DNA from: Alphaproteobacteria bacterium
GTDB taxonomy: Bacteria > Pseudomonadota > Alphaproteobacteria > Bin95
NCBI GenBank assembly: GCA_963665325.3
Contig: OZ224045.1
Span: forward strand, 864,001-928,000
Direction of reading: 5' to 3'
Length of the DNA: 64,000 nt
The translations under genes were made by a program, and so were the position numbers. The notes under the pieces were generated by a model. The model saw only the letters and a list, made by a program, of their open reading frames with translations, had not been told where the DNA came from and did not search any database. Below are positions 33,752-50,479 of the stretch, in pieces. Each line of letters opens with the position of its first letter. Within the stretch, counting starts at the first letter, position 1.

Positions 33752-34993
33752 ATGGAAGCGCCCGCGCAACCCGATTCGCGCCCGTCCTTCGTAGATGCGT
33801 TCGCAGGCTGCGGCGGCTTGAGCCTCGGCCTCAAGCGCGCAGGGTGGCAGGGGCTCTTTGCTATCGAGAAAGACCCCAACGCATTCCAAACCCTGTCGGC
33901 GAACTTCCCCACGGGCGACGGCCCGCTCTCCTATGCATGGCCTGAGGGAATAGAACGGCAGACTTGGGACATCCGAGAGTTGCTGTCGCAGCGCCAGCAG
34001 GTATTGAAGGGCCTTGAGGGCAAGGTGGACCTACTAGCGGGCGGGCCGCCTTGTCAGGGGTTTTCGCAGGCCGGACCGAGGCAGGCGGGCGACCCCCGAA
34101 ACACCCTCTTCGAGGCTTATCTGGAACTTGTCGAACTGCTGCGCCCGCGTTTCGTGCTCGTGGAGAATGTCCGGGGGTTCGCATCGGATTTCAAAGCGCG
34201 GGAATCCGGACCCGTCGAGAACTTTGCCGAGGCGCTGAAGCGAGGCCTTGAAGGGCAATATGACATTATGCCGGCATTCATCCGGGCCAGCGATTTCGGG
34301 GTGCCGCAGATGCGGCCCCGTTTCTTTCTGGTCGGGGCCCTCAAGGGAATGGAGGTGAGCGGAGGAATCGAAGCCTTTTTCGGTGACCTGCGGGAAGCAG
34401 CCCCTGGTTTCCTGTCAGAACGGGGGCTTCCAGAAAAGCCTAATGCCAAGGATGCAATCGGCGACCTTGAGACAGAGATAAACGGCACGATACTTTGCGA
34501 CGAATGCAAGGGATTCGAGAAGATCGGCTACAAAGCACCACGTACGGCCTACCAAAAGGCCATGCGCGACGGCTACAAGGGTGTCCCCTCTTGCACGCGA
34601 CTGGCCCGCCACAGGCCACATATCCGCGAGCGTTTTGCTTCCATCATTGCAGCGTGCAAGGAAGAGAAACGCCTCAATACATCGCTTTCGGCCAAGATGC
34701 GGTCCGACTACGGGCTCAGCAAATCAGGCCTCAGAGTCATGGACCCGAAAGCGCCTACACCAACTATTACCAGCCTGCCCGACGACCTTCTGCACTATTC
34801 CGAGCCGAGAACCCTAACCGTACGCGAAAATGCGCGGCTCCAATCCTTTCCCGATTGGTTTGAATTCAAGGGCAAATACACGACTGGTGGCGAACGGCGG
34901 CGCAACGAAGTCCCTCGGTTCACGCAAGTAGCAAATGCAGTTCCTCCCTTATTGGCGGAGCAAATTGGCCTAGCTCTCTTGCGAATACGCTAA
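33752..34993 (+). CDS. dcm: C5 DNA cytosine methyltransferase
   Basis: FAGCGG, GGPPCQGFS, ENV, PQMRPR, RENARLQSFPD, ANAVPP motifs. Confidence 0.95.
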   Translation: MEAPAQPDSRPSFVDAFAGCGGLSLGLKRAGWQGLFAIEKDPNAFQTLSANFPTGDGPLSYAWPEGIERQTWDIRELLSQRQQVLKGLEGKVDLLAGGPPCQGFSQAGPRQAGDPRNTLFEAYLELVELLRPRFVLVENVRGFASDFKARESGPVENFAEALKRGLEGQYDIMPAFIRASDFGVPQMRPRFFLVGALKGMEVSGGIEAFFGDLREAAPGFLSERGLPEKPNAKDAIGDLETEINGTILCDECKGFEKIGYKAPRTAYQKAMRDGYKGVPSCTRLARHRPHIRERFASIIAACKEEKRLNTSLSAKMRSDYGLSKSGLRVMDPKAPTPTITSLPDDLLHYSEPRTLTVRENARLQSFPDWFEFKGKYTTGGERRRNEVPRFTQVANAVPPLLAEQIGLALLRIR

Positions 34994-35937
34994 AGGCTTG
35001 GAGACCCGAGTTCATTCCGCAACACTTCACAAATGGCCTCCAACGCTCGCCGATGGATGCGGAGCTTCTTTCGAAAGCTCTGCATCCATTCGTCATCGAT
35101 TACTTCGACATCGCCTCGCCGTGTAGGACGTAAAATAATCTGACCATCGCTAGCAAATTCCTCGTTAGCATGCGCTAACAGGTTTCGATTGTCTATAATG
35201 TCTTGCTTGTACGACTGCAGGAAAGTATCTTCTTTCTCGAAATCTGCGTCTACTACTTTAGTCATCCTTACAATGGCACGGTATCTGTCGTAGGATGAAA
35301 ACAAACCAGTGTCCAAAACAACAGGAATTAATCCGTCCACTAATTTACCTCTTAACCGAGCAGAACGGCCCTCCATATTTTTGACAAGTTTCTCCGTCGT
35401 CCTCCTCTCCACTCGTAACACTCTCGGATTATTCAAGTTCAAAATAAATACAATCGCTTTTTCCATAATTATATCCATCTCCGCAACTTCTGCCATAGCA
35501 ATACCCCGCATCAGTGTAAGGTCTACCGCCTTTCCAATCACAGTATCTGCAATTCCTTTAAGAGGATCACTCAAATATCGCCTCTCTTCTACAAAAACTC
35601 CCGAAACTCCGTGTTCCAGAAGCTCTTTTTGCAACTCCCTGGTCGGAATTCCGGAATAAAACACCATATCTGTATACGGTAGAGTAACCCTTAGGCGTCT
35701 CGCCACCTGAGCACCATCAATGTCGTCATGGCCGAGATTGTAGTCGATCATAACGAGATTGAAACTCTTCCCCTTCCCCTTTTCGAGCTCCTGCAGTGAC
35801 TCTTCGGATATTTCATCCAAGTAACGCGAACTCAGGCTAAATCCCTTCGAGTCTAGGTGCTCTTCGAGAGTTCTGATTGCTTGTTGAAGACCTTCGGGAT
35901 TATCGTCCACAATCAAAAGAGAAAAATCGAGCTTCAT
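34990..35937 (-). CDS. Response-regulator receiver domain fused to HEPN-like C-terminal domain
   Basis: LIVDD, VMIDYNL (phosphoacceptor Asp), VFYSG; C-terminal NRNLLAH (Rx4H). Confidence 0.75.
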   Translation of the reverse strand: MKLDFSLLIVDDNPEGLQQAIRTLEEHLDSKGFSLSSRYLDEISEESLQELEKGKGKSFNLVMIDYNLGHDDIDGAQVARRLRVTLPYTDMVFYSGIPTRELQKELLEHGVSGVFVEERRYLSDPLKGIADTVIGKAVDLTLMRGIAMAEVAEMDIIMEKAIVFILNLNNPRVLRVERRTTEKLVKNMEGRSARLRGKLVDGLIPVVLDTGLFSSYDRYRAIVRMTKVVDADFEKEDTFLQSYKQDIIDNRNLLAHANEEFASDGQIILRPTRRGDVEVIDDEWMQSFRKKLRIHRRALEAICEVLRNELGSPSL

Positions 35938-38207
35938 GTCGGTATCCTAAGCACCATGTGGGCACCGCTAAGCAGTTCGGACTGAGGCTCCTTTGGTGCC
36001 TCAACAAGCCCGCCCATGCCCTCCACCACCTGCTTGACGTGGTAAAGGCCAAGGCCAGAGCCATCTGTAGTTGTAACACCTTTTTCGAAGACGCGGCTTA
36101 CGGGCTCCATGGAAGACGGCCAGCCGGGTCCGTTGTCGCCAACGGAAATCCTGAGTTCAGGTTCTGGGCCTTTCCCGACATCTAAGGCAAATCCAATGTT
36201 GGTCGCGCGCGCTTTGGCCGCATTCGAAACGAGATTGTCGATAACAATACCGATCTCGATTGGGCGGAACGAGCGCGAGAAAGGCTTGCTATCACTTCCA
36301 AATTCCACCGCGATGCCCTGTGGAGCCCACAGAGCGGACACTGTTTCGATATAGTCGCGTATAAAGGCGGTGAGATCGGCTTTCACTTTCGCCGATTGCT
36401 GCCGGTATCCGCCTTTGGTTGCAAACCGCGCGGCCGTCAGGATTTGGCTGTTCCTGAATGAGACCTGCTCTAGGAAGTCCACCCAGTCGCCTTTTGTGAG
36501 GGCCGCACCGTTCCTAAGCTTAGCCATCATCCGGCGCACGCCCTCGTGGACATCCGAGGCATGCATAATGATCTGGTGGTGGAGATTGAGAATCGTGTCT
36601 TGGTCTAGGGACGAAACGGCTACTAGGAACTCGCTGCGTTTGCGTTCCTCCGCATATCTGGCCTCCGCAACTGTCTTAGCCCTAGATGCCGAGGCTGCTC
36701 TTCCCTCCGCCCGGCGTTCGGCCTCCCGTGCTTCTGCTTCAGCAGCTTGAAGAGCCTTGATACGCTTCTTGGCGTCGTCCACGCGAGCAAGAAGGACGTT
36801 GTCACCGGTTCTCTCGGCCAACAGTTCGAGGGCTTTTAGAGATGTTTCAAACGCTGACGACTTCGCGTCCACAATGCGCACAATATCTGGATTGTACTCC
36901 ACAAGGTCAATGCCATCGGTAGCAGCTAATCTGGACACCAGTTGTCCTATTTTAGCGCTGCTCTCGTCGAGCATCATCCGCGAAGTGTCTTGAATGTCTT
37001 TATCAAATTTATCCGCCCAAGAGATATCTACGACATATCGTTCAAGGCGTCTAATGCATTTCGCTATAAAGCAGTCTATCAGCTCTTCGACTTGTTGTGT
37101 GCGGATAAGCCCCTGGTCCCGGCTCGTTGCCTCGACAAACCCATCGACGCCTTTGATTTGTACGTGGCCAATCAGGTCCCGAGTTCCCAGAAATCGTCTC
37201 ATCCCTTGCTGTTTTCGATGAAGCAAGCGAAAAAAGTCGTCTGTTTGATCTCCAATTGGAAATACCCGAAAGCCATTACGAAATAGGAAAATTGATCCGA
37301 AGGCAACACTTTGTATTCCCATCCGATGGGCGAATAACGTTTTGGCTCCACGGTTCAAGAAATAGATTTCTGAAGTGAATTGCGACTTTGTCAATTTTTC
37401 GTACTGATTCTTTTCCCTGATTCTATAAATTGTTTCGCCGCGATCCGTGAGATGGGTTTGGATGATTGCGCCGTTGTCTACTATTTCTACCTTTATTGTG
37501 GTTGTTCGTTGTTTCAACACATTAAGAATTTCGTTAGTAACCTCACCACTCAGGGATGATTTTCCTTTGATGTGCAAATTTATGCGAAACTTGGTCTCTT
37601 CGTCAGAAAATGGATTGATTAACTTCGCAAGTTCCCGGCGCAATTTTTGAAAATCCTCGTCGCTCCATGCGTGCCGCAAAGAGGTAATTTCAAGTATCGT
37701 TCCTTTCTTGGTGTGCGGAAACATGTCGAATGAGGGAAGGTTGACGTCTTCCCGAATTTCGACTTCGATATCCCCAAATTCTTGCTTGGAATTTTGTTCG
37801 TATCTTGTCCAGTCAATGTCCAATACTTGTACGGGGCCAATATGAGAGCGAGAATTGAGTACTAGACGACTTCCAAGGCGATCACACGAAAACCTCCCGA
37901 TGCCCTTAGCGCCGGCAAAAGGGCGACTTCGGTCTGCAACCTTGTCACGGTAGTCTTGATCCTCAGTGCCGTCTCGCTTTGCGGAATAGGCAACAAATAG
38001 CCATTTGTCGAGAATGTCGCGTCGGGACATTCCCTTGCCGTTGTCCGCGATGACAATCCTGTCATCCTCAAAGCAAATGTGGACAGAGTCAGCATGGGCG
38101 TCAAAAGAATTCTTGACCAGTTCAAAGACGGCTACGAAGTCGTTGGTGATCAGCTCACGTCCGATCAGGTCCTTCAACCCGGTACTGACCCTGAACGCTT
38201 TCTGCAT
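35934..38207 (-). CDS. MORC/MutL-type GHKL ATPase fused to histidine kinase
   Basis: N-terminal ELVKNSFDA, DNGKGM, GAKGIGRF, RNGFRV; coiled coil; NLHHQ H-box; C-terminal NLVSNA, DNGPG, GSGLGL. Confidence 0.85.
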   Translation of the reverse strand: MQKAFRVSTGLKDLIGRELITNDFVAVFELVKNSFDAHADSVHICFEDDRIVIADNGKGMSRRDILDKWLFVAYSAKRDGTEDQDYRDKVADRSRPFAGAKGIGRFSCDRLGSRLVLNSRSHIGPVQVLDIDWTRYEQNSKQEFGDIEVEIREDVNLPSFDMFPHTKKGTILEITSLRHAWSDEDFQKLRRELAKLINPFSDEETKFRINLHIKGKSSLSGEVTNEILNVLKQRTTTIKVEIVDNGAIIQTHLTDRGETIYRIREKNQYEKLTKSQFTSEIYFLNRGAKTLFAHRMGIQSVAFGSIFLFRNGFRVFPIGDQTDDFFRLLHRKQQGMRRFLGTRDLIGHVQIKGVDGFVEATSRDQGLIRTQQVEELIDCFIAKCIRRLERYVVDISWADKFDKDIQDTSRMMLDESSAKIGQLVSRLAATDGIDLVEYNPDIVRIVDAKSSAFETSLKALELLAERTGDNVLLARVDDAKKRIKALQAAEAEAREAERRAEGRAASASRAKTVAEARYAEERKRSEFLVAVSSLDQDTILNLHHQIIMHASDVHEGVRRMMAKLRNGAALTKGDWVDFLEQVSFRNSQILTAARFATKGGYRQQSAKVKADLTAFIRDYIETVSALWAPQGIAVEFGSDSKPFSRSFRPIEIGIVIDNLVSNAAKARATNIGFALDVGKGPEPELRISVGDNGPGWPSSMEPVSRVFEKGVTTTDGSGLGLYHVKQVVEGMGGLVEAPKEPQSELLSGAHMVLRIPT

Positions 38208-39315: not shown

Positions 39316-39402
39316 CGTCATGCCCGGACTTGTTCCGGGCATCTCCCTCGGGGCCACTGCGATGGCGGAAATGGATGCCCGGATCAAAGCCGGAGCATGT
39401 CG
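39316..39402. repeat. Alphaproteobacterial REP-like palindromic element
   Basis: GTCATGCCCGGACTTGTTCCGGGCATC ... GATGCCCGGATCAAAGCCGGAGCATGTC inverted arms. Confidence 0.75.
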
Positions 39403-39659
39403 TGATCGAATCTCGTAACTGACTAGACTCATTGAAGAATTCACCCTTGAATTGATGGTGTGGAAGCCATAATCCTAAATCAGTCATCAAGTCGAAAGCA
39501 GAATTTTTCAATATCAGGTCGGCCGTCGGCAGCGTCTGGCAACGCATTACCATTTTCGAGCGTCGAGGCCAATGTAACCGTTCGGGTCCCGGGGGATCGT
39601 AGCCTCCCACTGATTTTTCTCACTGGTAACTAAGTCGCGCATGCGCTACCGTCTCGCGC

Positions 39660-41825
39660 ATGGCGGTTCTCGAGGCGGATTTCGTCACCGACCTGACGCC
39701 GGCCGAGGGCGGCGACATGCTGTGGTCGCTTCCCGTCGTGGCGCCGGCGCGCGAGCCGCTCGACTGGGCGTCTCTGCTTGAAGAGGCGGAGGCGCGCGTC
39801 AAGGAGGAACGGGGCCGCGCGGCTGTGGCGGAGTTGCGCCGCGAGGAACTGCGCCGGTCGGAGAGCGATGCCCGAGCGCTTGCGGACTCGCTGACGAGGC
39901 AGCTCGACACCTGCCGGTTCAAGCTCAAGACGGCGACCTCGAAGACCGCGTCGCGGGCCGCGAAGGGGTTGGAGCGCAGGGTCGAGTCCCAGGACGACGA
40001 AATCGCCGATCTTCGCCTCACGCTGCGCAGGTCTCACGAGCGCCAGGAGCGGATCGAAAAACGCCACCAGGACGAGATCAACTGGCTGAAGCAGGACATC
40101 GACCGGGAGCGCTCGCGGATCGCGAAGGTGTACCGCAAGGGCGAGCGCGTGGCCGGGTCGCTGCGCAAGCAGTTCGACCGGCAGCTCGCGGCGGCCAGGC
40201 GGCTGGTGGAGACCCGGGAGGGCACGATCGCATGGCTGCGCGAACGCAACGCCCGGATGCGGGCGGCGATCGTGCGGGCCACGGAGCTGATCGCCTCGCT
40301 GCGGGAGAAGAATACCCGGCTGCGCGCCGAGGTGCGGGATCTGAAGGACGAGAACGCGGCGCTGGCCTCGCAGGTCGAGACGCTGCAAGCCCAGCTCGAC
40401 AAGCTGCGCTCGACCCGGAGCGTCCTGTCGAAGGCGCTCTACGGCAGCAGGAGCGAGCAGCAGAAGAGGCCGGGCACCGGGCGCAAGCGCGGCCAGCAGC
40501 GCGGCGCCGCCGGGCACGGCCGCACCCAGCGCCCCGGGCTCGGGCAGAAGAAGGAACCGCGCGACCCGCCTGAGGAAGCGCGTGTGTGTCCGCGTTGCGG
40601 CAAGCCCTACGCCGCCAACGGCGAGCGCTGCACCACTCTCTTCGAGATCGATGTCGAGGCCTACGAGAACACCATCGTGCGGTCGCGCTGGCGCCACAGT
40701 TGCGACTGCGCCTCCGCGCCGCGGGAGGTGACCGCGCCGCCGGTGACGCGGCTGTTCGAGACCACGCCCTACGGGATCAGCGTATGGACGTGCATGCTCT
40801 ACGAGCGCTTCGTCTGCTGCCGTCCCCTGCATCGGGTCGCGGCCTGGCTGGCCGACATGGGGCTGGCGATCTCGCCGGGGACCCTGGCCGACAGCATCAA
40901 GCGCTTCGTGCCGCTGTTCGAACCGTTGGCCGAGGCGATCCTCGCGCACCAGAACGAGGCCGCGCTGCGCCACGCCGACGAAACATCCTGGCGCGTTCAG
41001 GCGTATCGCGAGAAAGGCCGGTCGAGCCGCGCCTGGTTGTGGATCTCGGTCAGCAACGATGCCGTCTACTTCCACATCGACCCCTCGCGCAGCGCCGAGG
41101 TCGCGATGAAGCTGTTCGGTTCGGTCAAGGATACCGTGGTCCTGGTCTGCGACCGGTTCAGCGCCTACAGGAAGCTGGCTCGCGAACTCGCCGGCAAGGT
41201 GATCCTGCAATGGTGCTGGGCACATCAAAGGCGCTCGTTCATCGACCGTGCCGCCGGTCATGTGCGGCTCAGGCGCTGGTGCCAGAGATGGATCGAGCGG
41301 ATCGCGCTGATCTACCGGCTGAACGACGATCGGCTGGAGCATTACGACCCCGCTCACCCCCTCGAACGACAGTCGCCGGCGTTCGATATCGCGCACGCCA
41401 AGCTGAAGAAGGAGGTCGACGAGCTGTTCGCAGCCGCCGAAGCGGAACTGGCCGGGCTGACGGACAGGGCGCGCAGGGCCAAGCCGCTGCGCTCGCTTCT
41501 CAACCACCGCGGGGGGCTGTGCGTCTTCGTCGACAAGCCGTTCGTGCCCATGGACAACAACCGCGGCGAGCTCTCGTTGCGCTTCGCGGTTATCGGACGA
41601 CGGCTCTCGTTCGGCTCCGACAGCGAGAAAGGCGCCGGGTTCACGGCGACGATGTACTCGGTGGCTGGCACGCTGGCGATCAACGGCATCGACGTCCGGC
41701 GCTGGCTCAGGGAATGGCTGACCGCGTGCGCGGAAAACGGCGGCAATCCGCCGGACGACCTCTCGCCCTGGCTGCCGTGGTCGATGAGCGAGGAGCGCCG
41801 GCGCGAACTCACGGCGTCGGGATGA
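39660..41825 (+). CDS. tnpC: IS66 transposase with long N-terminal coiled coil
   Basis: CPRCG zinc finger, HADETSW, VCDRFSAY, CWAHQRR, DNNRGELSLR. Confidence 0.92.
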   Translation: MAVLEADFVTDLTPAEGGDMLWSLPVVAPAREPLDWASLLEEAEARVKEERGRAAVAELRREELRRSESDARALADSLTRQLDTCRFKLKTATSKTASRAAKGLERRVESQDDEIADLRLTLRRSHERQERIEKRHQDEINWLKQDIDRERSRIAKVYRKGERVAGSLRKQFDRQLAAARRLVETREGTIAWLRERNARMRAAIVRATELIASLREKNTRLRAEVRDLKDENAALASQVETLQAQLDKLRSTRSVLSKALYGSRSEQQKRPGTGRKRGQQRGAAGHGRTQRPGLGQKKEPRDPPEEARVCPRCGKPYAANGERCTTLFEIDVEAYENTIVRSRWRHSCDCASAPREVTAPPVTRLFETTPYGISVWTCMLYERFVCCRPLHRVAAWLADMGLAISPGTLADSIKRFVPLFEPLAEAILAHQNEAALRHADETSWRVQAYREKGRSSRAWLWISVSNDAVYFHIDPSRSAEVAMKLFGSVKDTVVLVCDRFSAYRKLARELAGKVILQWCWAHQRRSFIDRAAGHVRLRRWCQRWIERIALIYRLNDDRLEHYDPAHPLERQSPAFDIAHAKLKKEVDELFAAAEAELAGLTDRARRAKPLRSLLNHRGGLCVFVDKPFVPMDNNRGELSLRFAVIGRRLSFGSDSEKGAGFTATMYSVAGTLAINGIDVRRWLREWLTACAENGGNPPDDLSPWLPWSMSEERRRELTASG

Positions 41826-42703
41826 CCGGCGCGGTCGAGTGCCGCTACCACGGCCGAGACTTCACCGCCGAGGAAATGGCGCTGCTGCGCGCGCTCATCG
41901 CCGGTCCCGCATCGCTCTCCCGCCGCGCCCTGTCGATCGAGTTCTGCCGGCGCATCGGCTGGATCAAGCCCGACGGCGGGCTCAAGGATATGATGGCCCG
42001 CGTCACCATGCTCGCCATGCACCGCGACGGCCTCATCGAACTGCCGCCGCCCAGGTGGCAGCGGGGACGGCCCAGGCCCATCGTCTTCGGACCCGACACC
42101 GAGCCGCCGCTGTTCCCCGCGCCCACGACCCTCGACGAGGTCCGTCCGCTCGACTTCCGCGCCGTCGTGCACAGCACCCGGGAAGGCAGGCTCTGGAACG
42201 AGTTCGTCGCCCGCTACCATTATCTCGGATACAAGACCCTGGTCGGCGCCCAGATGCGCTACGCCGTCCACGACCGAAACGGCTGGCCCGTCGCCATGCT
42301 CGGCTTCTCCACCGCCGCCTGGAAGCTCGCCCCGCGCGACAACTTCATCGGATGGTCGCCCGAAAAGCGCGAGAAGAACCTCCCGCTCGTGGTCGACAAC
42401 CCGCGCTTCCTGATATTGCCGTGGATCCAGATCCCCAACCTCGGATCGCACATCCTCGCCATCGTGCGCCGGCGCCTGCCCACCGACTGGACCGAGCGCT
42501 ACGGCACCACCCCCGTGCTGATCGAAACCTTCGTCGAGACCCCGCGATACACCGGCGCCGTCTACAAGGCGTCGGGCTGGACCCGCGTCGGGACCACCCA
42601 GGGCCGTGGCCGCTACGACAGGCATACCAAACGAGCTCAGCCGAAAAAGGACATCTGGCTCCGCCCCCTCCGAAAAGATTGGCAACGCACCCTCAATCGG
42701 TAG
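41822..42703 (+). CDS. DUF4338 (Druantia DruA-like) protein, IS passenger
   Basis: YHYLG, VDNPRFLILPW, NLGSHIL, DWTERYG..PVLIETFVE, GAVYKASGW; ATGA overlap with tnpC. Confidence 0.85.
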   Translation: MTGAVECRYHGRDFTAEEMALLRALIAGPASLSRRALSIEFCRRIGWIKPDGGLKDMMARVTMLAMHRDGLIELPPPRWQRGRPRPIVFGPDTEPPLFPAPTTLDEVRPLDFRAVVHSTREGRLWNEFVARYHYLGYKTLVGAQMRYAVHDRNGWPVAMLGFSTAAWKLAPRDNFIGWSPEKREKNLPLVVDNPRFLILPWIQIPNLGSHILAIVRRRLPTDWTERYGTTPVLIETFVETPRYTGAVYKASGWTRVGTTQGRGRYDRHTKRAQPKKDIWLRPLRKDWQRTLNR

Positions 42704-42838
42704 AATCACACCCGGTCGCGACCAGGTGCGGGTAAGCATGCCAACAAGCGGATAACCTCCTCCTCATCCCCCGGGACCCGAACGGTTACAGGCCAATTCG
42801 AGGCCGAATTGGGTGAGAACCGATTCATTCGTATACGT

Positions 42839-43669
42839 TCACGTCTCGTCCAGAGCGATCCTTACGCTGTTTTCTCCATGGGTGATGAGCTTTCTGTCCT
42901 CTTGGGGCCCTTCGGCGAAGACGACGCCCTGGAGGATCAGAGCCCTTCTCGCGCTGCCGTCCATCGGTAACTCGATTGTCCAGACCGCACTGCCGCTTAC
43001 GCCACCATGGGTCCGGGGAATCCACGGATCGTCGCTCGTAATGGCGTACTCACCGTAGTCCCAACCATCCTCGTCTGTCGCCTGTTCTGCTGTCCTGCCT
43101 ATCAGCATGCCGTGGGCGACCACCATGTTCTCGCCCAGGTCGCTCGCGGCGTGGACGAATCCGAAAACAATTCCGATCTGGCATACTTCGCCCTCGAACG
43201 CATCGCGCGGTCTCGCCCTGTTGCGGAAGACGGCACCAAGTGCCTCCATCCTCTCCACATCTTCTCCCGACAAGGGCATCCAGCCGATATCCGGACCCAA
43301 CGGCCCTTGGTTGGCTTCTCCCCGGCCTGTCATGCCCGCGCCTTCAATCCTGATCCAGTTGACCAGTTCTCGGTCCTGGGCCGGGAGCACGAGGATGTTC
43401 TGCCTGGCCTTGACGGCGCCGATGACGTGCCCGGCCGTCAGAATGCCATGCTGGCCATCGGTTCTTCTGACAAACGTTCCGGAACCGATTGGTGTCAGCT
43501 GCCCCTCCGCGCCGTAACCGATGATCGTCGTGTATCGGCGTACGAGATCGGCCAGGATCCGCGGCGCAGTCTCGGGATTCAACTGGTCCTCCTGGAAGAT
43601 ACCGGTCCTCGCAAGGTAGCCCGAAACTTCGGACCAGCCGGCGGTCACGATCGCGGGTTCTGGAGCCAT
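42839..43669 (-). CDS. Trypsin-like serine protease, no signal peptide
   Basis: GSGTFV, LTAGHV (His), PDIG (Asp), GGVSGSAV (Ser). Confidence 0.75.
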   Translation of the reverse strand: MAPEPAIVTAGWSEVSGYLARTGIFQEDQLNPETAPRILADLVRRYTTIIGYGAEGQLTPIGSGTFVRRTDGQHGILTAGHVIGAVKARQNILVLPAQDRELVNWIRIEGAGMTGRGEANQGPLGPDIGWMPLSGEDVERMEALGAVFRNRARPRDAFEGEVCQIGIVFGFVHAASDLGENMVVAHGMLIGRTAEQATDEDGWDYGEYAITSDDPWIPRTHGGVSGSAVWTIELPMDGSARRALILQGVVFAEGPQEDRKLITHGENSVRIALDET

Positions 43670-44941
43670 GATGCATTCCGTTCTGTTCGGTGGCGGGTCA
43701 TACTGGGAGATGGTGGGCGATTGGAAATCTGAGGCCGGCGGGTTTGGGCGAAGTCTATAGGGATGCGGTGCTCTTCGGGCGGCGATGGCGTTGTGCAACG
43801 TGATGTGGCGGGATGGGCATGGTCTAGCCGGATGTATTCACGTCGATTAAATCGGAGGGTTTGGAGCGCGCAGGGGTGGGCGTTCGGCGCCGCTACGGTG
43901 CCGGGATCTGAAGTTTTCGAAGTCGAAGTTGAGGGTTGAGCCGGCTCGGGTTGGTGGGGCACGCCGCCCCGTCGGTCAGGGTCCCGAGGTCGCGAACCGG
44001 CCCGCCAGCAGCCGGAACAGGGCGGCGTCGGGGCAGGCCGAGGTGAAGTGGATGCGGATGCGCGCGGCCTTCTCGACGACGCGCGCGCCTATCTTGAGCA
44101 GTTTCTGGCGGAGGGCTGCGAACTCGGCCAAGTGGAGCGGCATCCTGCGCGGCACGGCATCGCGGAGCGCGAGCATCAGCCAGTAGGCGGCGATGTGCAG
44201 GACCAGCCTGAACTGGTTGGCGAGCGGGCCCTGGCAGGAGGTGCGGTCGGAGGCGAGCTGGGCCTTGTGCAACTTGATGAGGTTTTCCGCCTGGCCGCGG
44301 GCGCAGTAGATCCCTTCGTAGAGATGGCGGGGCTCGCCGGTGAGCGAGGTGACGATGTAGCGCGCGTCGAAGCCGCGGGTCGTCGCCTCCAGCCGGGCGA
44401 CCACGCGGCGCGCGCGGTTCCACGAGCCGGCGGCGTAGGCGAAGTCGTCGAAGCCGCGGACCTTGTCGCCACCGGCTTCGGCGTGGCGCGCCCGGACCTC
44501 CTCGCCGGACTCGTCGGCGAGGCGGTGCAGCACCGCATTGCCGGCCAGGCCGAAGATATAGTCGACGCCGTTGTCCTCGCACCATGCCATCGCCTCGGTC
44601 CGACCGTAGTGGCTGTCGCCCCGGAAGGTGAGCCGGGTGCGCGGCCAGTGCCGGCGGATGCGCCGCGTCAGATGCTTGAGCATGGTGCGGACCTCGACCC
44701 CCGACGGCGTCTTGCCGGGGCGCGGGAGAACCGCCACCGGCCTGCCGCTCTCGACATGGTAGACGTGCACCGGGAGGAAGCAGCGGGTGTCATGGAAGCC
44801 GTTGAACAGCGAGAGTTGCTGGTGGCCGTGCACCGCGTCGCAGGTCTCGTCGATGGTAACCGTTCGGGTCCCGGGGGATGAGGAGGAGGTTATCCGCTTG
44901 TTGGCATGCTTACCCGCACCTGGTCGCGACCGGGTGTGATT

Positions 44942-45823
44942 CTACCGATTGAGGGTGCGTTGCCAATCTTTTCGGAGGGGGCGGAGCCAGATGTCCTTTT
45001 TCGGCTGAGCTCGTTTGGTATGCCTGTCGTAGCGGCCACGGCCCTGGGTGGTCCCGACGCGGGTCCAGCCCGACGCCTTGTAGACGGCGCCGGTGTATCG
45101 CGGGGTCTCGACGAAGGTTTCGATCAGCACGGGGGTGGTGCCGTAGCGCTCGGTCCAGTCGGTGGGCAGGCGCCGGCGCACGATGGCGAGGATGTGCGAT
45201 CCGAGGTTGGGGATCTGGATCCACGGCAATATCAGGAAGCGCGGGTTGTCGACCACGAGCGGGAGGTTCTTCTCGCGCTTTTCGGGCGACCATCCGATGA
45301 AGTTGTCGCGCGGGGCGAGCTTCCAGGCGGCGGTGGAGAAGCCGAGCATGGCGACGGGCCAGCCGTTTCGGTCGTGGACGGCGTAGCGCATCTGGGCGCC
45401 GACCAGGGTCTTGTATCCGAGATAATGGTAGCGGGCGACGAACTCGTTCCAGAGCCTGCCTTCCCGGGTGCTGTGCACGACGGCGCGGAAGTCGAGCGGA
45501 CGGACCTCGTCGAGGGTCGTGGGCGCGGGGAACAGCGGCGGCTCGGTGTCGGGTCCGAAGACGATGGGCCTGGGCCGTCCCCGCTGCCACCTGGGCGGCG
45601 GCAGTTCGATGAGGCCGTCGCGGTGCATGGCGAGCATGGTGACGCGGGCCATCATATCCTTGAGCCCGCCGTCGGGCTTGATCCAGCCGATGCGCCGGCA
45701 GAACTCGATCGACAGGGCGCGGCGGGAGAGCGATGCGGGACCGGCGATGAGCGCGCGCAGCAGCGCCATTTCCTCGGCGGTGAAGTCTCGGCCGTGGTAG
45801 CGGCACTCGACCGCGCCGGTCAT
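44942..45823 (-). CDS. DUF4338 (DruA-like) protein, copy 2
   Basis: Same translation as 41822-42703. Confidence 0.85.
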   Translation of the reverse strand: MTGAVECRYHGRDFTAEEMALLRALIAGPASLSRRALSIEFCRRIGWIKPDGGLKDMMARVTMLAMHRDGLIELPPPRWQRGRPRPIVFGPDTEPPLFPAPTTLDEVRPLDFRAVVHSTREGRLWNEFVARYHYLGYKTLVGAQMRYAVHDRNGWPVAMLGFSTAAWKLAPRDNFIGWSPEKREKNLPLVVDNPRFLILPWIQIPNLGSHILAIVRRRLPTDWTERYGTTPVLIETFVETPRYTGAVYKASGWTRVGTTQGRGRYDRHTKRAQPKKDIWLRPLRKDWQRTLNR

Positions 45824-47985
45824 CCCGACGCCGTGAGTTCGCGCCGGCGCTCCTCGCTCATCGACCACGGCAGCCAGGGCGAGAGGTCGTCCGGCGGATT
45901 GCCGCCGTTTTCCGCGCACGCGGTCAGCCATTCCCTGAGCCAGCGCCGGACGTCGATGCCGTTGATCGCCAGCGTGCCAGCCACCGAGTACATCGTCGCC
46001 GTGAACCCGGCGCCTTTCTCGCTGTCGGAGCCGAACGAGAGCCGTCGTCCGATAACCGCGAAGCGCAACGAGAGCTCGCCGCGGTTGTTGTCCATGGGCA
46101 CGAACGGCTTGTCGACGAAGACGCACAGCCCCCCGCGGTGGTTGAGAAGCGAGCGCAGCGGCTTGGCCCTGCGCGCCCTGTCCGTCAGCCCGGCCAGTTC
46201 CGCTTCGGCGGCTGCGAACAGCTCGTCGACCTCCTTCTTCAGCTTGGCGTGCGCGATATCGAACGCCGGCGACTGTCGTTCGAGGGGGTGAGCGGGGTCG
46301 TAATGCTCCAGCCGATCGTCGTTCAGCCGGTAGATCAGCGCGATCCGCTCGATCCATCTCTGGCACCAGCGCCTGAGCCGCACATGACCGGCGGCACGGT
46401 CGATGAACGAGCGCCTTTGATGTGCCCAGCACCATTGCAGGATCACCTTGCCGGCGAGTTCGCGAGCCAGCTTCCTGTAGGCGCTGAACCGGTCGCAGAC
46501 CAGGACCACGGTATCCTTGACCGAACCGAACAGCTTCATCGCGACCTCGGCGCTGCGCGAGGGGTCGATGTGGAAGTAGACGGCATCGTTGCTGACCGAG
46601 ATCCACAACCAGGCGCGGCTCGACCGGCCTTTCTCGCGATACGCCTGAACGCGCCAGGATGTTTCGTCGGCGTGGCGCAGCGCGGCCTCGTTCTGGTGCG
46701 CGAGGATCGCCTCGGCCAACGGTTCGAACAGCGGCACGAAGCGCTTGATGCTGTCGGCCAGGGTCCCCGGCGAGATCGCCAGCCCCATGTCGGCCAGCCA
46801 GGCCGCGACCCGATGCAGGGGACGGCAGCAGACGAAGCGCTCGTAGAGCATGCACGTCCATACGCTGATCCCGTAGGGCGTGGTCTCGAACAGCCGCGTC
46901 ACCGGCGGCGCGGTCACCTCCCGCGGCGCGGAGGCGCAGTCGCAACTGTGGCGCCAGCGCGACCGCACGATGGTGTTCTCGTAGGCCTCGACATCGATCT
47001 CGAAGAGAGTGGTGCAGCGCTCGCCGTTGGCGGCGTAGGGCTTGCCGCAACGCGGACACACACGCGCTTCCTCAGGCGGGTCGCGCGGTTCCTTCTTCTG
47101 CCCGAGCCCGGGGCGCTGGGTGCGGCCGTGCCCGGCGGCGCCGCGCTGCTGGCCGCGCTTGCGCCCGGTGCCCGGCCTCTTCTGCTGCTCGCTCCTGCTG
47201 CCGTAGAGCGCCTTCGACAGGACGCTCCGGGTCGAGCGCAGCTTGTCGAGCTGGGCTTGCAGCGTCTCGACCTGCGAGGCCAGCGCCGCGTTCTCGTCCT
47301 TCAGATCCCGCACCTCGGCGCGCAGCCGGGTATTCTTCTCCCGCAGCGAGGCGATCAGCTCCGTGGCCCGCACGATCGCCGCCCGCATCCGGGCGTTGCG
47401 TTCGCGCAGCCATGCGATCGTGCCCTCCCGGGTCTCCACCAGCCGCCTGGCCGCCGCGAGCTGCCGGTCGAACTGCTTGCGCAGCGACCCGGCCACGCGC
47501 TCGCCCTTGCGGTACACCTTCGCGATCCGCGAGCGCTCCCGGTCGATGTCCTGCTTCAGCCAGTTGATCTCGTCCTGGTGGCGTTTTTCGATCCGCTCCT
47601 GGCGCTCGTGAGACCTGCGCAGCGTGAGGCGAAGATCGGCGATTTCGTCGTCCTGGGACTCGACCCTGCGCTCCAACCCCTTCGCGGCCCGCGACGCGGT
47701 CTTCGAGGTCGCCGTCTTGAGCTTGAACCGGCAGGTGTCGAGCTGCCTCGTCAGCGAGTCCGCAAGCGCTCGGGCATCGCTCTCCGACCGGCGCAGTTCC
47801 TCGCGGCGCAACTCCGCCACAGCCGCGCGGCCCCGTTCCTCCTTGACGCGCGCCTCCGCCTCTTCAAGCAGAGACGCCCAGTCGAGCGGCTCGCGCGCCG
47901 GCGCCACGACGGGAAGCGACCACAGCATGTCGCCGCCCTCGGCCGGCGTCAGGTCGGTGACGAAATCCGCCTCGAGAACCGCCAT
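45820..47985 (-). CDS. tnpC: IS66 transposase, copy 2
   Basis: Same 721-aa translation as copy 1. Confidence 0.92.
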   Translation of the reverse strand: MAVLEADFVTDLTPAEGGDMLWSLPVVAPAREPLDWASLLEEAEARVKEERGRAAVAELRREELRRSESDARALADSLTRQLDTCRFKLKTATSKTASRAAKGLERRVESQDDEIADLRLTLRRSHERQERIEKRHQDEINWLKQDIDRERSRIAKVYRKGERVAGSLRKQFDRQLAAARRLVETREGTIAWLRERNARMRAAIVRATELIASLREKNTRLRAEVRDLKDENAALASQVETLQAQLDKLRSTRSVLSKALYGSRSEQQKRPGTGRKRGQQRGAAGHGRTQRPGLGQKKEPRDPPEEARVCPRCGKPYAANGERCTTLFEIDVEAYENTIVRSRWRHSCDCASAPREVTAPPVTRLFETTPYGISVWTCMLYERFVCCRPLHRVAAWLADMGLAISPGTLADSIKRFVPLFEPLAEAILAHQNEAALRHADETSWRVQAYREKGRSSRAWLWISVSNDAVYFHIDPSRSAEVAMKLFGSVKDTVVLVCDRFSAYRKLARELAGKVILQWCWAHQRRSFIDRAAGHVRLRRWCQRWIERIALIYRLNDDRLEHYDPAHPLERQSPAFDIAHAKLKKEVDELFAAAEAELAGLTDRARRAKPLRSLLNHRGGLCVFVDKPFVPMDNNRGELSLRFAVIGRRLSFGSDSEKGAGFTATMYSVAGTLAINGIDVRRWLREWLTACAENGGNPPDDLSPWLPWSMSEERRRELTASG

Positions 47986-48865
47986 GCGCGAGACGGTAGC
48001 GCATGCGCGACTTAGTTACCAGTGAGAAAAATCAGTGGGAGGCTACGATCCCCCGGGACCCGAACGGTTACCGTCGATGTCGAGCGTGATCGCCGCCGGC
48101 GGGGACGCGAAGGAGCGGCAGAAGATGTCGACCAGGGCGGCCGTCAGGCGCCCCGTCTCGCTACTGGACGGCGCGTTCTCCAGCCGGCTCATGGTAGGCT
48201 GCGAACAGAGATCGCGGCCGCTCTCCGGCGCCCGGCCGACCGCCAGCTTGAACAGCGGATCGGCGCGCAGGTCGTCGCAATCGTCGGCGTCCTCATACCC
48301 GCAGGCGATCGCGAACATGCGGAACCGAAGCATCGCCGGCAGGCTGTGGACGACCCGGTCGGGGTCGCGCCATTCCCGGATGCAGCCGGCCAGCGTCTCG
48401 GCCAGGCCGAGCCGGCGCTCCGCCCCGCGCAGCAGGACCAGCCCACCGTCCGACGAGATCGAACCGCCGGCGAAATCGGCAGTCACCTTCTTGCGGCTTA
48501 CGGCTGGAAGATCGAACGGGAGAAGGGTATCATCGGTCATGGCGGGCGTGGCGCTTTCGTTGCTTCGGCAGAAATGCGCTGGGAAACGAATTTCTACCCG
48601 AATCCAACGGGTTACGCCACGTTCGCCACCATGCCTTCAGACCCTGATGAATACATCAGGTTAGACCGGTTGCCGGGGCAGGTCAATGGCGAGTACTCGA
48701 CATGGCGAGTACTCGGCTGTATTCCGTCTGACACTTCTGTCCGACGCCCAGCAAGAGGATTATCTCGACGATGTTTGGCAGGTCTCGCATATTTCTGCCA
48801 TCGTTGAAAACCGTATTAGAAGGCTAATGACAACTGGGCTCCGAACAACAAAGGACTAATGGTAA

Positions 48866-49519
48866 ATGCCATCAAGCGCACTAAGGAAGTTCGAAGGCCC
48901 AATGATGCGGGATGTTGAGCGCATTATTGCGACGCATGCGGATATGCAGGCAGGGAGCCCTGGGAACATGGGACTTGGGCATCTGACAAGAGCAGGCGTT
49001 CTTTTCCTATGCGCCGCATGGGAATTATACATTGAGGAAGTGCTGAATGAAAGTATCAAACACTGCATCCAGAAGAGTTCGTCACCTGAAGATCTCCCAA
49101 AAACGGTAAAGAAGACAATTTCCCAATACGTACGTGATTCCAAACATCAACTCAAGCCAATCGGTATGGCAGGAGACGGCTGGAAAACGATTTACTCTGA
49201 AATCGCTAGCGAATGGGTCGTCGGACTCAATACACCCAAATCTCACAATATCGATCAAGGTTTTCGTACACTCGTGGGTATTGAAAAATTATCTGAAAAC
49301 TGGTCTTTAGGGGCCGCCGTAGTGAATAGCTTCGTCGAAGTTAGAGGGGATATAGCGCACCGTGGATCGGATGCAGGCAACGTTCATATGAGTACGTTGA
49401 AGAATGCCTATAAAGAACAAATTACAAAATGTGTCCTTGAAACAGATAATGCTTTATCGAATTACATCAGGAATGCGTTTTCTCCTACAAGCTATCCATG
49501 GAACCGGCGTCAAATATAG
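48866..49519 (+). CDS. HEPN domain protein (RiboL-PSP-HEPN/MAE_28990-like)
   Basis: RAGVLFLCAAWELYIEE N-terminal helix, LNTPK, VRGDIAH (Rx4H); AT-rich. Confidence 0.78.
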   Translation: MPSSALRKFEGPMMRDVERIIATHADMQAGSPGNMGLGHLTRAGVLFLCAAWELYIEEVLNESIKHCIQKSSSPEDLPKTVKKTISQYVRDSKHQLKPIGMAGDGWKTIYSEIASEWVVGLNTPKSHNIDQGFRTLVGIEKLSENWSLGAAVVNSFVEVRGDIAHRGSDAGNVHMSTLKNAYKEQITKCVLETDNALSNYIRNAFSPTSYPWNRRQI

Positions 49520-49777
49520 TCTTCGTATTCGTTACTTGGGCAGATCGGCTAATTGCAGTCTGCGGTCGGGTTCTGTAGTCAAGCAGCATACTAAGATCCA
49601 CGCTGGGGCAGGATCATGCTTCTGTATACGGTTAGCCCGGTGGCCGCCGGTAGCTTGGGTCAAGCGCGGGGGGGCGGGTCAATCCAGCGGTCGGGCTCAC
49701 GAGGTGGCTCAGCAATTTTCTCGACCTCACCCATTTCGGTTTTCCCTGGCCTCGGGACATCTGCTACGCGGGTTCTT

Positions 49778-49945
49778 CTAAGTGATCGCTCGCAGCTGCC
49801 TTTTGCTCGCCGGGGGGCGGCGGAAGACGTGATGGCCCGTCCATATCCTGTGAAGCATGATCGCCAGCTTCGTGGTGACCGCGAATACGGCTCTCTTCTG
49901 TCGCCGGCGCCGCGCTACGCGAATTCCGCAGCTCTTGTGGACCGA
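49778..49945 (-). pseudogene. IS110-family transposase C-terminal remnant
   Basis: Manual translation KSCGIRVARRRRQKRAVFAVTTKLAIMLHRIWTGHHVFR resembles the IS110 C-terminus KAWGxRIAKRRGxKRAxVAVARKLAVILHRMW. Confidence 0.7.
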
Positions 49946-50479
49946 TGGCCTGGCGCGGTGCCCGGAACCACCCCAAGCTTGTGTCCCGGCCGCAAAGCGG
50001 GAGCGGTCGCTGTCTCGGATCGGTGCACCCCGCGCCCCCTACGGGCGCGCGGGGTGGCCGCAGTTCGTCTCCCGGCCCCAAAGTCGGAGCGGTTGTCGTC
50101 CTCGGTCTTACGGGGGATCGCAACAGCGCGGCGGACGTCCTGATCCATCGGGCGTCTCGGCGGGTCGTGGATTGCTTCGGTTCTGCGGGCACCTGATGAA
50201 TGAACGCCGACCGGTCATCAAATCGAATGCGGGTGTTTTCAATACCGGGACTTGGGCGGGCGACACATGGCGCTGAAACACCATTTTGGCGCGCGGGGGC
50301 AAGGTCCAGGCTGCTATCGGCAGCAATTCAGCGGAGCGGCATCCAGCCGCCACAGGAAATCGCTCCGGACTCGCTGACCGCAAGCAGGCCCTCCGGAAGA
50401 GCATGGGGGCGGCGACAACGGTGTTGCGGTACGCACTGGAACGCAGCGCCTCGAATTCCCATATCGACGATAGTGAGCA

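Follow-up and report, generated by a model that had tools for sequence, protein, structure and literature searches.

The window analysed here is a 64,000-nucleotide stretch of an Alphaproteobacteria genome (contig OZ224045.1, positions 864,001 to 928,000). It holds a 3216-bp insertion sequence (IS) of the IS66 type with two genes: tnpC, encoding a DDE transposase, and a second open reading frame (ORF2), encoding a protein with the DUF4338 domain. An inverted repeat search returned arms at 39573-39597 and 42766-42790 (25 nt, 100% complementary) as the sole perfect long pair in the region, and tnpC and ORF2 were the only long same-strand ORFs inside the element. An initial annotation had described perfect 24-bp terminal inverted repeats (TIRs) with an 8-bp target-site duplication, a 721-aa TnpC and a 293-aa DUF4338 gene coupled by ATGA, and the absence of tnpA and tnpB. 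Its descriptive statements on the element were all correct: the repeat search and the reading of the flanks recovered the repeats and the duplication, the two ORFs (39660-41825 and 41822-42703) overlap in ATGA, and neither of them matches HTH_Tnp_1 or TnpB_IS66. The parts of the element are listed below.

39574-42789: IS66-type IS, 3216 bp (inverted repeat search and reading of the ends)
39574-39597, + strand: left TIR (IRL), 24 bp, GTAACCGTTCGGGTCCCGGGGGAT, beginning GTAACCG (inverted repeat pair, 100% complementary)
42766-42789, - strand: right TIR (IRR), 24 bp (inverted repeat pair)
39566-39573: left 8-bp target-site duplication AGGCCAAT (read in the flank, flank comparison)
42790-42797: right 8-bp target-site duplication AGGCCAAT (read in the flank, flank comparison)
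39660-41825, + strand: tnpC, 721 aa, IS66-family DDE transposase (ORF with Pfam and NCBIfam matches)
39771-40466, + strand: variable coiled-coil arm of TnpC, aa 38-269 (weak coiled-coil/SMC matches, no others there)
40587-40709, + strand: Cys cluster of TnpC (C310, C313, C348, C350; invariant in 30 relatives)
40773-41636, + strand: DDE_Tnp_IS66 catalytic domain of TnpC, aa 372-659 (Pfam)
41637-41822, + strand: C-terminal tail of TnpC, aa 660-721, conserved with many invariant W/L/P (alignment, dN/dS 0.31)
41822-41825, + strand: ATGA overlap of tnpC stop and ORF2 start (probable translational coupling)
41822-42703, + strand: ORF2, 293 aa, DruA-like (PF14236) partner protein (ORF with Pfam match)

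TnpC, the IS66 family and copies of the element

The IS66 family is characterized by TIRs beginning GTAA and by an 8-bp target duplication, and it comprises canonical elements with tnpA-tnpB-tnpC and the ISBst12 group with tnpC alone. Transposase type, ends and duplication all place the present element in this family. TnpC matched Pfam DDE_Tnp_IS66 (PF03050; E 2.1e-51, aa 372-659) and NCBIfam transpos_IS66 (NF033517; 247.9 bits vs a cut-off of 180, E 1.7e-73, aa 281-689), and its Cys cluster is probably a zinc finger. The gene content fits neither group. Upstream of tnpC there is no tnpA or tnpB, and Pfam detected no TnpA or TnpB_IS66 domain in the two long same-strand ORFs. Nor is tnpC the single ORF, as a coupled ORF2 was found in every complete relative. 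The LZ, zf-IS66 and IS66 C-terminal domains of Pfam gave no match to the window TnpC at E<=0.01. Elsewhere in the same genome, a canonical IS66 element encodes tnpA (HTH_Tnp_1), tnpB (TnpB_IS66) and a 561-aa tnpC, in which the LZ, zf-IS66, DDE and C-terminal domains are all present.

The 5.58-Mb, five-contig genome contains three copies of the 3216-bp element with 100% identity. The second one also lies in the window:

44856-48071, - strand: second identical copy, inside an IS1380-type (DDE_Tnp_1_4) transposase gene

It is flanked by its own 8-bp duplication, CGTCGATG, at 44848-44855 and 48072-48079, and the C-terminal 285 aa of the interrupted gene are encoded at 43976-44833. The two window copies are inverted with 2066 bp between them. 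They were considered as a composite transposon; this was rejected because the outer flanks do not agree, and the 8-bp duplications match around each copy taken singly. No target duplication flanks the third copy (contig 1, 437326-440541). When its locus (contig 1, 437132-442753) was compared with the window at 39378-39573 and 48072-50282, it was found to consist of 196 bp of the left flank of copy 1, then the IS, then 2.2 kb of the right flank of copy 2. The copy-1 left flank stops 2 nt early there (GAGGCCA, not GAGGCCAAT), and the 8-bp site sits in a small hairpin, CCAATTCG-AGGC-CGAATTGG. The third copy may reflect an IS-mediated adjacent deletion in a duplicated region, hitting the same 8-bp site.

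Two diverged subtypes of the two-gene element are also present in the genome, one in three copies (contigs 3 and 5) and the other as a single interrupted copy (contig 2). Relative to the window element, both have a TnpC 54-56% identical and an ORF2 protein 85-86% identical. Related elements have ends of the GTAAGCG/GTAACCG type and a length of ~3.0-4.0 kb (median ~3.4 kb), and many genomes contain several to at least 10 copies. Where both ends were in hand, identical 8-nt flanks were observed for 29 of 56 related copies, against ~0.04 expected by chance.

Two putative transcription signals were noted near the ends:

39591-39617, + strand: terminator-like hairpin and T-run just inside IRL, reading inward (consensus match)
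42679-42706, + strand: outward-facing sigma-70-like promoter match TTGGCA-16-TAGAAT, 10/12, near the right end (consensus match)

Judging from the sequence, read-through into tnpC could be blocked at the hairpin. The scan for outward sigma-70-like promoters found one against 0.3 expected, and this candidate would read into tnpC if the element forms circles or tandem junctions. Small shares of the words of the element occur in 15 RNA-recorded runs; the four examined gave only Logan contigs 90-99% like the element, and among those listed none bridges the tnpC/ORF2 junction. A higher summed depth over 42166-42597 was considered as a sign of expression, and was attributed instead to the stronger conservation of that part.

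Linkage of ORF2 to transposases

A scan of one genome per species provided loci with relatives of ORF2, and the best 80 of 367 relative-encoding stretches were kept as 79 loci. They come from metagenome-assembled genomes titled Alpha- and Gammaproteobacteria, Bryobacterales, Thalassobaculaceae, Rariloculaceae, Azotimanducaceae, Foliamicus, Defluviicoccus and others, so that genomes labelled as different phyla and classes share ORF2 proteins at 81-95% identity. Every one of the 79 has a TnpC match whose end lies no more than 40 nt upstream of where ORF2 starts (in 78 the match exceeds 80 aa). The inferred start lies in ATGA in 67 loci, one base off in 8 more, and in GTGA in 4. Across these loci, with ORF2 proteins 81-95% identical to that of the window, TnpC is ~45-89% identical to the window TnpC. 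The reciprocal search with the catalytic half of TnpC covered 301 genomes of the same class; six matched and returned 21 loci, five of them from the window's genome. An ORF2 homologue follows directly downstream in 19, and the remaining two are TnpC fragments without a 3' end.

Selective constraint was assessed with Nei-Gojobori estimates of the ratio of nonsynonymous to synonymous changes (dN/dS) between the element subtypes within this genome:

ORF2: 0.22-0.33
TnpC C-terminal tail: 0.31
TnpC Cys cluster and DDE core: 0.52-0.59
TnpC coiled coil: 0.93-1.13

ORF2 is therefore the part of the element under the strongest constraint, stronger than the transposase. Among 30 elements, pairwise distances of the ORF2 protein and TnpC correlate (Mantel r 0.58; 0 of 2000 permutations as high). 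The mean distance is 0.167 for the ORF2 protein vs 0.316 for the C-terminal 441 aa of TnpC, about half the rate for the partner, a contrast somewhat inflated by the choice of loci on ORF2 similarity; the within-genome dN/dS values are free of that bias.

The linkage extends to fusions. In a protein library clustered at 50% identity, 8555 cluster representatives matched the ORF2 family at E<=0.001. The long relatives (514-2000 aa) number 307 at this threshold, and the best 120 were scanned by Pfam: 98 carry PF03050 and PF14236 in one protein. Most of these fusions belong to a ~810-aa class that is 39-47% identical to ORF2, and several are named "transposase" by their source, one of them "IS66 family transposase". 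Other domains among the same 120 were Tn5-type (5), PF01609 (4) and an IstB-like ATPase (1). The PF14236 domain is N-terminal in the Tn5-like transposases P0217, P0249, P0234 and P0231, in other DDE_Tnp_1 transposases (P0262, P0270), in a DDE_3 (IS630-type) transposase (P0268) and in an ISAs1-type transposase on a Thiodictyon plasmid, all by Pfam. The 532-aa protein P0416, 51% identical to ORF2, contains the IstB-like ATPase domains PF01695 and PF00308, which may point to a link with IS21-type helper proteins.

A less biased sample was obtained by searching 401 genomes of the phylum for PF14236; 26 matched, and the examination covered 28 loci from genomes other than the window's own. Their contexts were as follows.

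Transposase-linked: 13 (3 IS66, 3 Tn5-like, 5 ISAs1, 2 UPF0236)
Ambiguous: 2
True DruA-type by PADLOC: 4 (268, 967, 592 and 384 bits)
Fragments or short contigs: 9

In the three IS66 loci the partner lies upstream of tnpC, the usual place of tnpA/tnpB. No relative of ORF2 was found by tblastn in 50,697 phage records, and the plasmid collection gave two matching records only, both from Candidatus Thiodictyon. On one of them (pTs485, 282572-283450), a DUF4338 gene that stands alone and shares 41% identity with ORF2 is grouped with integrase, IS91 and IS4 transposases in an insertion that splits a DUF2235 gene.

The linkage of tnpC and ORF2 is thus strict and ancient, and ORF2 is a fixed part of this transposase lineage rather than a chance passenger. 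The initial annotation had treated it as a passenger "carried" by the element, and this has to be revised: 79 of 79 loci, 19 of 21 reciprocal loci, the fusions and the dN/dS values describe a fixed and more conserved partner.

Some further features of related loci and of the surroundings were observed. In six loci (L022, L023, L025, L027, L053, L087) a group II intron lies one base inside the tip of an IS66-type TIR (~1-1357 in L025). Four of these loci were scanned and matched Rfam group-II-D1D4-6 at 120-128 bits; L025 also contains a reverse-transcriptase-like ORF. The intron was found at either IS end, in three genomes and four IS subtypes, and therefore appears to home into the conserved IS end. 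A 7.3-kb repeated unit with at least two near-identical copies occurs in genome G191 (L114, 1096-8450; also L115). The unit contains an IS66 element with both genes, in which a 1.9-kb repeat interrupts tnpC and recurs once near the left end. The terminal inverted repeats of the unit measure 126-132 bp and take in the 3' end of the ORF2 homologue; the right part of the unit is common to three loci. In the window, the surroundings (34990-38207, 42839-43798 and 48866-49519) look like a mobile/defence island. They encode a HEPN_RiboL-PSP protein, a 757-aa protein with a pair of GHKL ATPase domains next to a receiver-like protein, and a product of 319 aa that has no Pfam match and in which trypsin-type protease-like motifs were seen by eye.

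Fold of ORF2 and its relation to Mom and DruA

A structural model of ORF2 was built with an alignment of 37 sequences (37-79% identity to ORF2) and reached a mean pLDDT of 93.2. Two parts were distinguished in the protein:

41822-42046, + strand: N-terminal domain, aa 1-75, winged-helix-like (weak structural support)
42128-42700, + strand: GNAT-fold Mom-like domain, aa 103-293, with H133, Y134, R195, S209, E235, E239, R242 and Y248

Foldseek with the model returned 250 PDB chains at E<=0.001, nearly all of them GNATs, and re-alignment with VIA-align placed 764 of 999 chains at Z>=8. The best VIA-align match was Mom (8bv8_A; Z 14.4, root-mean-square deviation 3.7, 170 residues aligned, model residues 103-293), followed by NatF (Z 13.1) and many GNATs at 11.6-12.8. 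In BFVD the best matches were uncharacterised viral GNAT-like proteins, and a Mom ranked seventh. The N-terminal domain taken alone (model pLDDT 71.6) reached a best Z of 5.4 against 48,161 chains, most of the listed chains being winged-helix. A search of PDB sequences with the ORF2 family profile gave two chance matches only (E 1 and 1.3). As a side result of the BFVD search, the GNAT domain was matched at E 1e-6 to 1e-5 by several phage proteins of ~500-700 aa whose annotation reads homing endonuclease or endonuclease-like; going by the model, Mom-like GNAT domains may accompany other mobile nucleases too.

Passages of PMC13219725 describe Mom of phage Mu as an anti-restriction enzyme, encoded at the end of a transposable phage, that transfers glycine from Gly-tRNA(Gly) to the N6 of adenine in double-stranded DNA. 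They give its putative active site as lined by H58, Y59, R111, S124, D149, R151 and Y159, with R111, S124 and R151 essential, and superpose Mom on the tRNA-acetylating toxin TacT. DUF4338 itself is called a GNAT domain, fused to some DndF proteins, in passages of PMC10853773. The family of ORF2 was aligned by hhalign with 20 Mom homologues over 152 columns, which gave these pairs:

ORF2 H133, Y134 = Mom H58, Y59
ORF2 S209 = Mom S124
ORF2 E239 = Mom D149
ORF2 R242 = Mom R151
ORF2 Y248 = Mom Y159

Six of the seven active-site residues of Mom are thereby paired with near-invariant residues of ORF2, in an alignment of low statistical support. In the 37 relatives, H133 is conserved in 37, Y134 in 31, S209 in 36, Y248 in 35, E239 as E or D in 34, and R242 in 33 with K in two more; R195 is invariant. 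An alignment with 31 transposon-linked rows, drawn from eight contexts, shows the Mom-equivalent residues retained. At E<=1, 18 of the 37 relatives match the Pfam Mom family (PF25680; best E 0.0023), one of them reaching 25.9 bits vs the cut-off of 27.1, and none matches a Pfam acetyltransferase family. The resemblance to the GNAT motif of Mom-like enzymes that had been pointed out from the letters was recovered, ORF2 GAVYKASGWTRVG aligning with Mom GVVYQASNFDFIG. The comparison by Foldseek and profile against Mom and other GNATs, proposed at the same time, gave the GNAT fold with Mom best by VIA-align (Z 14.4).

With Druantia DruA the relation is more distant. ORF2 matches PF14236 ("Druantia protein DruA", DUF4338) at E 4.2e-39 (aa 108-268). 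It scores only 21.9 bits (E 1.9e-5) on DruA1 of PADLOC, vs 268, 384, 592 and 967 bits for real DruA proteins; other transposon-linked proteins tested there reach 20-25 bits only. No druB-druE operon stands beside ORF2: the gene lies inside a TIR-bounded 3.2-kb IS without adjoining Druantia genes, and the ORFs tested on either side of the element encode an HTH (helix-turn-helix) transposase piece, an IS1380-type transposase, a HEPN protein and products without Pfam match. In the four true DruA rows the Mom-equivalent residues are mostly replaced (S209 by N in three; R195 by T, I, V and T), in an alignment that is uncertain for such distant sequences. In a quick tree, the proteins clustered according to transposase family, with the long-branched true DruA proteins nested among them. 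Such an origin of DruA, as an offshoot from within the transposon-linked proteins, is unsupported because a constrained tree with the 44 transposon-linked rows in one clade scores better (log-likelihood +18.8 over the quick tree, p-AU 0.775). The data fit a clade of transposon-linked proteins separate from Druantia DruA. Thus, of the earlier label "DruA-like", the DUF4338/PF14236 domain stands (E 4.2e-39) and membership in Druantia DruA is not supported (21.9 bits, no Druantia neighbours). The Pfam name "DruA" is misleading for ORF2, and "Druantia protein DruA" will make pipelines label these very common IS genes as defence. In the YprA/Druantia preprint (10.1101/2025.09.15.676423), the passages that mention Druantia say nothing on DruA itself.

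Two observations concern the DruA-type loci L116 (genome G596) and L133 (genome G302). A true DruA-type gene (PADLOC 268 bits) directly adjoins a TniQ-domain gene. Another DruA-type protein, of 1077 aa, has a weak SspF/DndF-like stretch, which agrees with the DndF fusions described in passages of PMC10853773.

Proposed role of ORF2 and comparison with known systems

The best explanation, to which we assign a probability of roughly 0.6 as a whole, is that ORF2 is the obligatory Mom-like GNAT partner of TnpC, and that the element represents a distinct two-gene branch of the IS66 family that is autonomous and recently active. According to this explanation, the DNA would be cut and joined by TnpC, the DDE transposase whose coiled-coil arm is long and variable, and the ORF2 protein would be produced in step with it by termination-reinitiation at the ATGA. 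The ORF2 protein may bind TnpC, filling the role held by TnpA/TnpB in canonical IS66, and may act at the transpososome as an active acyl- or aminoacyl-transferase. A covalent mark on the transposon ends or the target could then license or limit transposition, or shield the moving DNA. Dam methylation plays such a licensing or limiting role in IS10 and IS50. Among the functions suggested in the initial annotation (DNA modification, anti-restriction or transposition accessory), the accessory role is favoured by the conserved linkage and the fusions, and a nucleic-acid substrate by the conserved Arg/His/Trp residues together with the extra DNA-binding-like domain. By analogy with Mom, the likeliest substrate would be DNA at the transposon ends or target, which we propose only tentatively. 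A TnpC that is always paired with a strongly conserved Mom-like protein suggests an undescribed transposition helper.

Several points weigh against this explanation. Mom ranks only 11th among the GNATs by Foldseek, and its lead in VIA-align is just 1.3 Z. The hhalign match is weak (E 0.0049, probability 7%), and the ORF2 of the window does not match the Pfam Mom family at E<=0.01. R111, essential in Mom, stands opposite an alignment gap in ORF2, and taking the invariant R195 as its equivalent is a guess. There is no evident counterpart in ORF2 to the HTH-like insertion of Mom (residues ~175-209), which is needed for activity; a short loop stands at the aligned position. The winged-helix call for aa 1-75 lies within noise and is a hint from the model. 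With regard to the linkage, loci picked by similarity of the partner form a set biased towards intact partners. In addition, outlier pairs such as L078/L085 (partner distance 0.07 vs 0.35 for TnpC) point to occasional module exchange, so that the low divergence of the partner is partly due to recombination.

Among the alternatives, the one that survives best, though we consider it unlikely, is that ORF2 is cargo that takes no part in transposition itself and instead helps the element or its host during horizontal transfer, by Mom-like modification of DNA or through some other function in anti-restriction or defence. Mom itself has such a function at the end of a transposable phage (PMC13219725, in the passages cited above), and ORF2 resembles it in fold and active-site residues. 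The family also falls under the same Pfam model as a defence protein, the window neighbourhood is rich in mobile and defence-like genes, and shielding of incoming DNA could pay for an element spread across differently labelled phyla and classes at 81-95% identity. However, cargo is normally gained and lost, whereas no complete member of the TnpC clade that was examined lacks ORF2, which is also coupled to the transposase in translation and, in the sister clade, joined to it in one protein. In units the size of an IS and free of other cargo, the family also accompanies at least five transposase families that are unrelated to each other, and tblastn found no relative in the 50,697 phage records. 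Furthermore, little DNA would be protected by an enzyme that a chromosomal IS expresses at about the level of a transposase.

Somewhat less probable still is an acetyl-CoA-dependent protein acetyltransferase acting, on lysine or the N-terminus, on the transposase or a host DNA-bending or replication factor. Most structural neighbours of ORF2 are indeed N-acetyltransferases (NatF at Z 13.1; RimI, RimL and SpeG at Z ~12.3-12.5), and fusion to the transposase would place the enzyme beside a protein substrate. The CoA-binding motif of GNATs is glycine-rich, Q/RxxGxG/A. At the usual position of this loop ORF2 has P-N-L-G-S, aligned with R-N-S-E-S of Mom, and no glycine-rich motif. The Pfam results (0 of 37 relatives on acetyltransferase families vs 18 of 37 weakly on Mom) likewise speak against it, and the invariant Arg/His/Trp residues and the winged-helix-like domain fit a nucleic-acid substrate better. 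A GNAT-type toxin like TacT or AtaT, which acetylates charged tRNA and would stabilise the element by addiction, is very improbable: the fold and the superposition of Mom on TacT (PMC13219725, as above) would allow it, but the 3216-bp element has no antitoxin-like small gene, several to at least 10 copies are tolerated in many genomes, and a transposase fusion is hard to square with a free toxin.

How accessory proteins contribute to IS66-family transposition is poorly understood. In the literature searched, we found no transposon-encoded acyltransferase partner of a DDE transposase. Literature linking the DUF4338 domain to IS elements was not found either; ISfinder lay outside the search, and a curated unpublished description is possible. 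The ORF2 family is attached to several transposase families and therefore probably does something general for transposition. A wider and distinctly more doubtful reading is that of a large undescribed family of Mom-like transferases, possibly aminoacyl-tRNA-dependent, that is standard in DDE transposons of at least five families and couples transposition to a covalent modification of DNA at the target or the transposon ends, DruA being a relative with an altered active site. If true, this would amount to a self-encoded epigenetic licence or shield for mobile DNA. Were ORF2 to modify DNA in the manner of Mom, transposition and DNA base modification would be connected in a new way; the family would also be a source of novel nucleic-acid-modifying enzymes and give a concrete, testable idea for the function of DruA.

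Compared with known systems, the element shares with the IS66 family the DDE_Tnp_IS66 domain, the GTAA ends, the 8-bp duplications, and the coiled coil and Cys cluster in the N-terminal half of TnpC. It differs from canonical IS66 in the absence of tnpA/tnpB and in the downstream, ATGA-coupled second gene of a different fold. Its TnpC shares only 25% identity with the canonical TnpC proteins encoded in the same genome; the coiled coil of this TnpC is much longer and evolves fast, and its C-terminus is a conserved tail of its own. Unlike the ISBst12 group, it has two genes and not one ORF. From Mom, ORF2 is set apart by marginal sequence similarity, by the extra N-terminal domain, by coupling or fusion to transposases across its family, and by the absence of tblastn matches in the phage records. 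At the same time, it resembles Mom (PDB 8BV8, PF25680) in the GNAT fold, in the aligned equivalents of H58, Y59, S124, D149, R151 and Y159, in the shared motif G-x-V-Y-x-A-S, and in being encoded near the right end of a DDE-transposable element.

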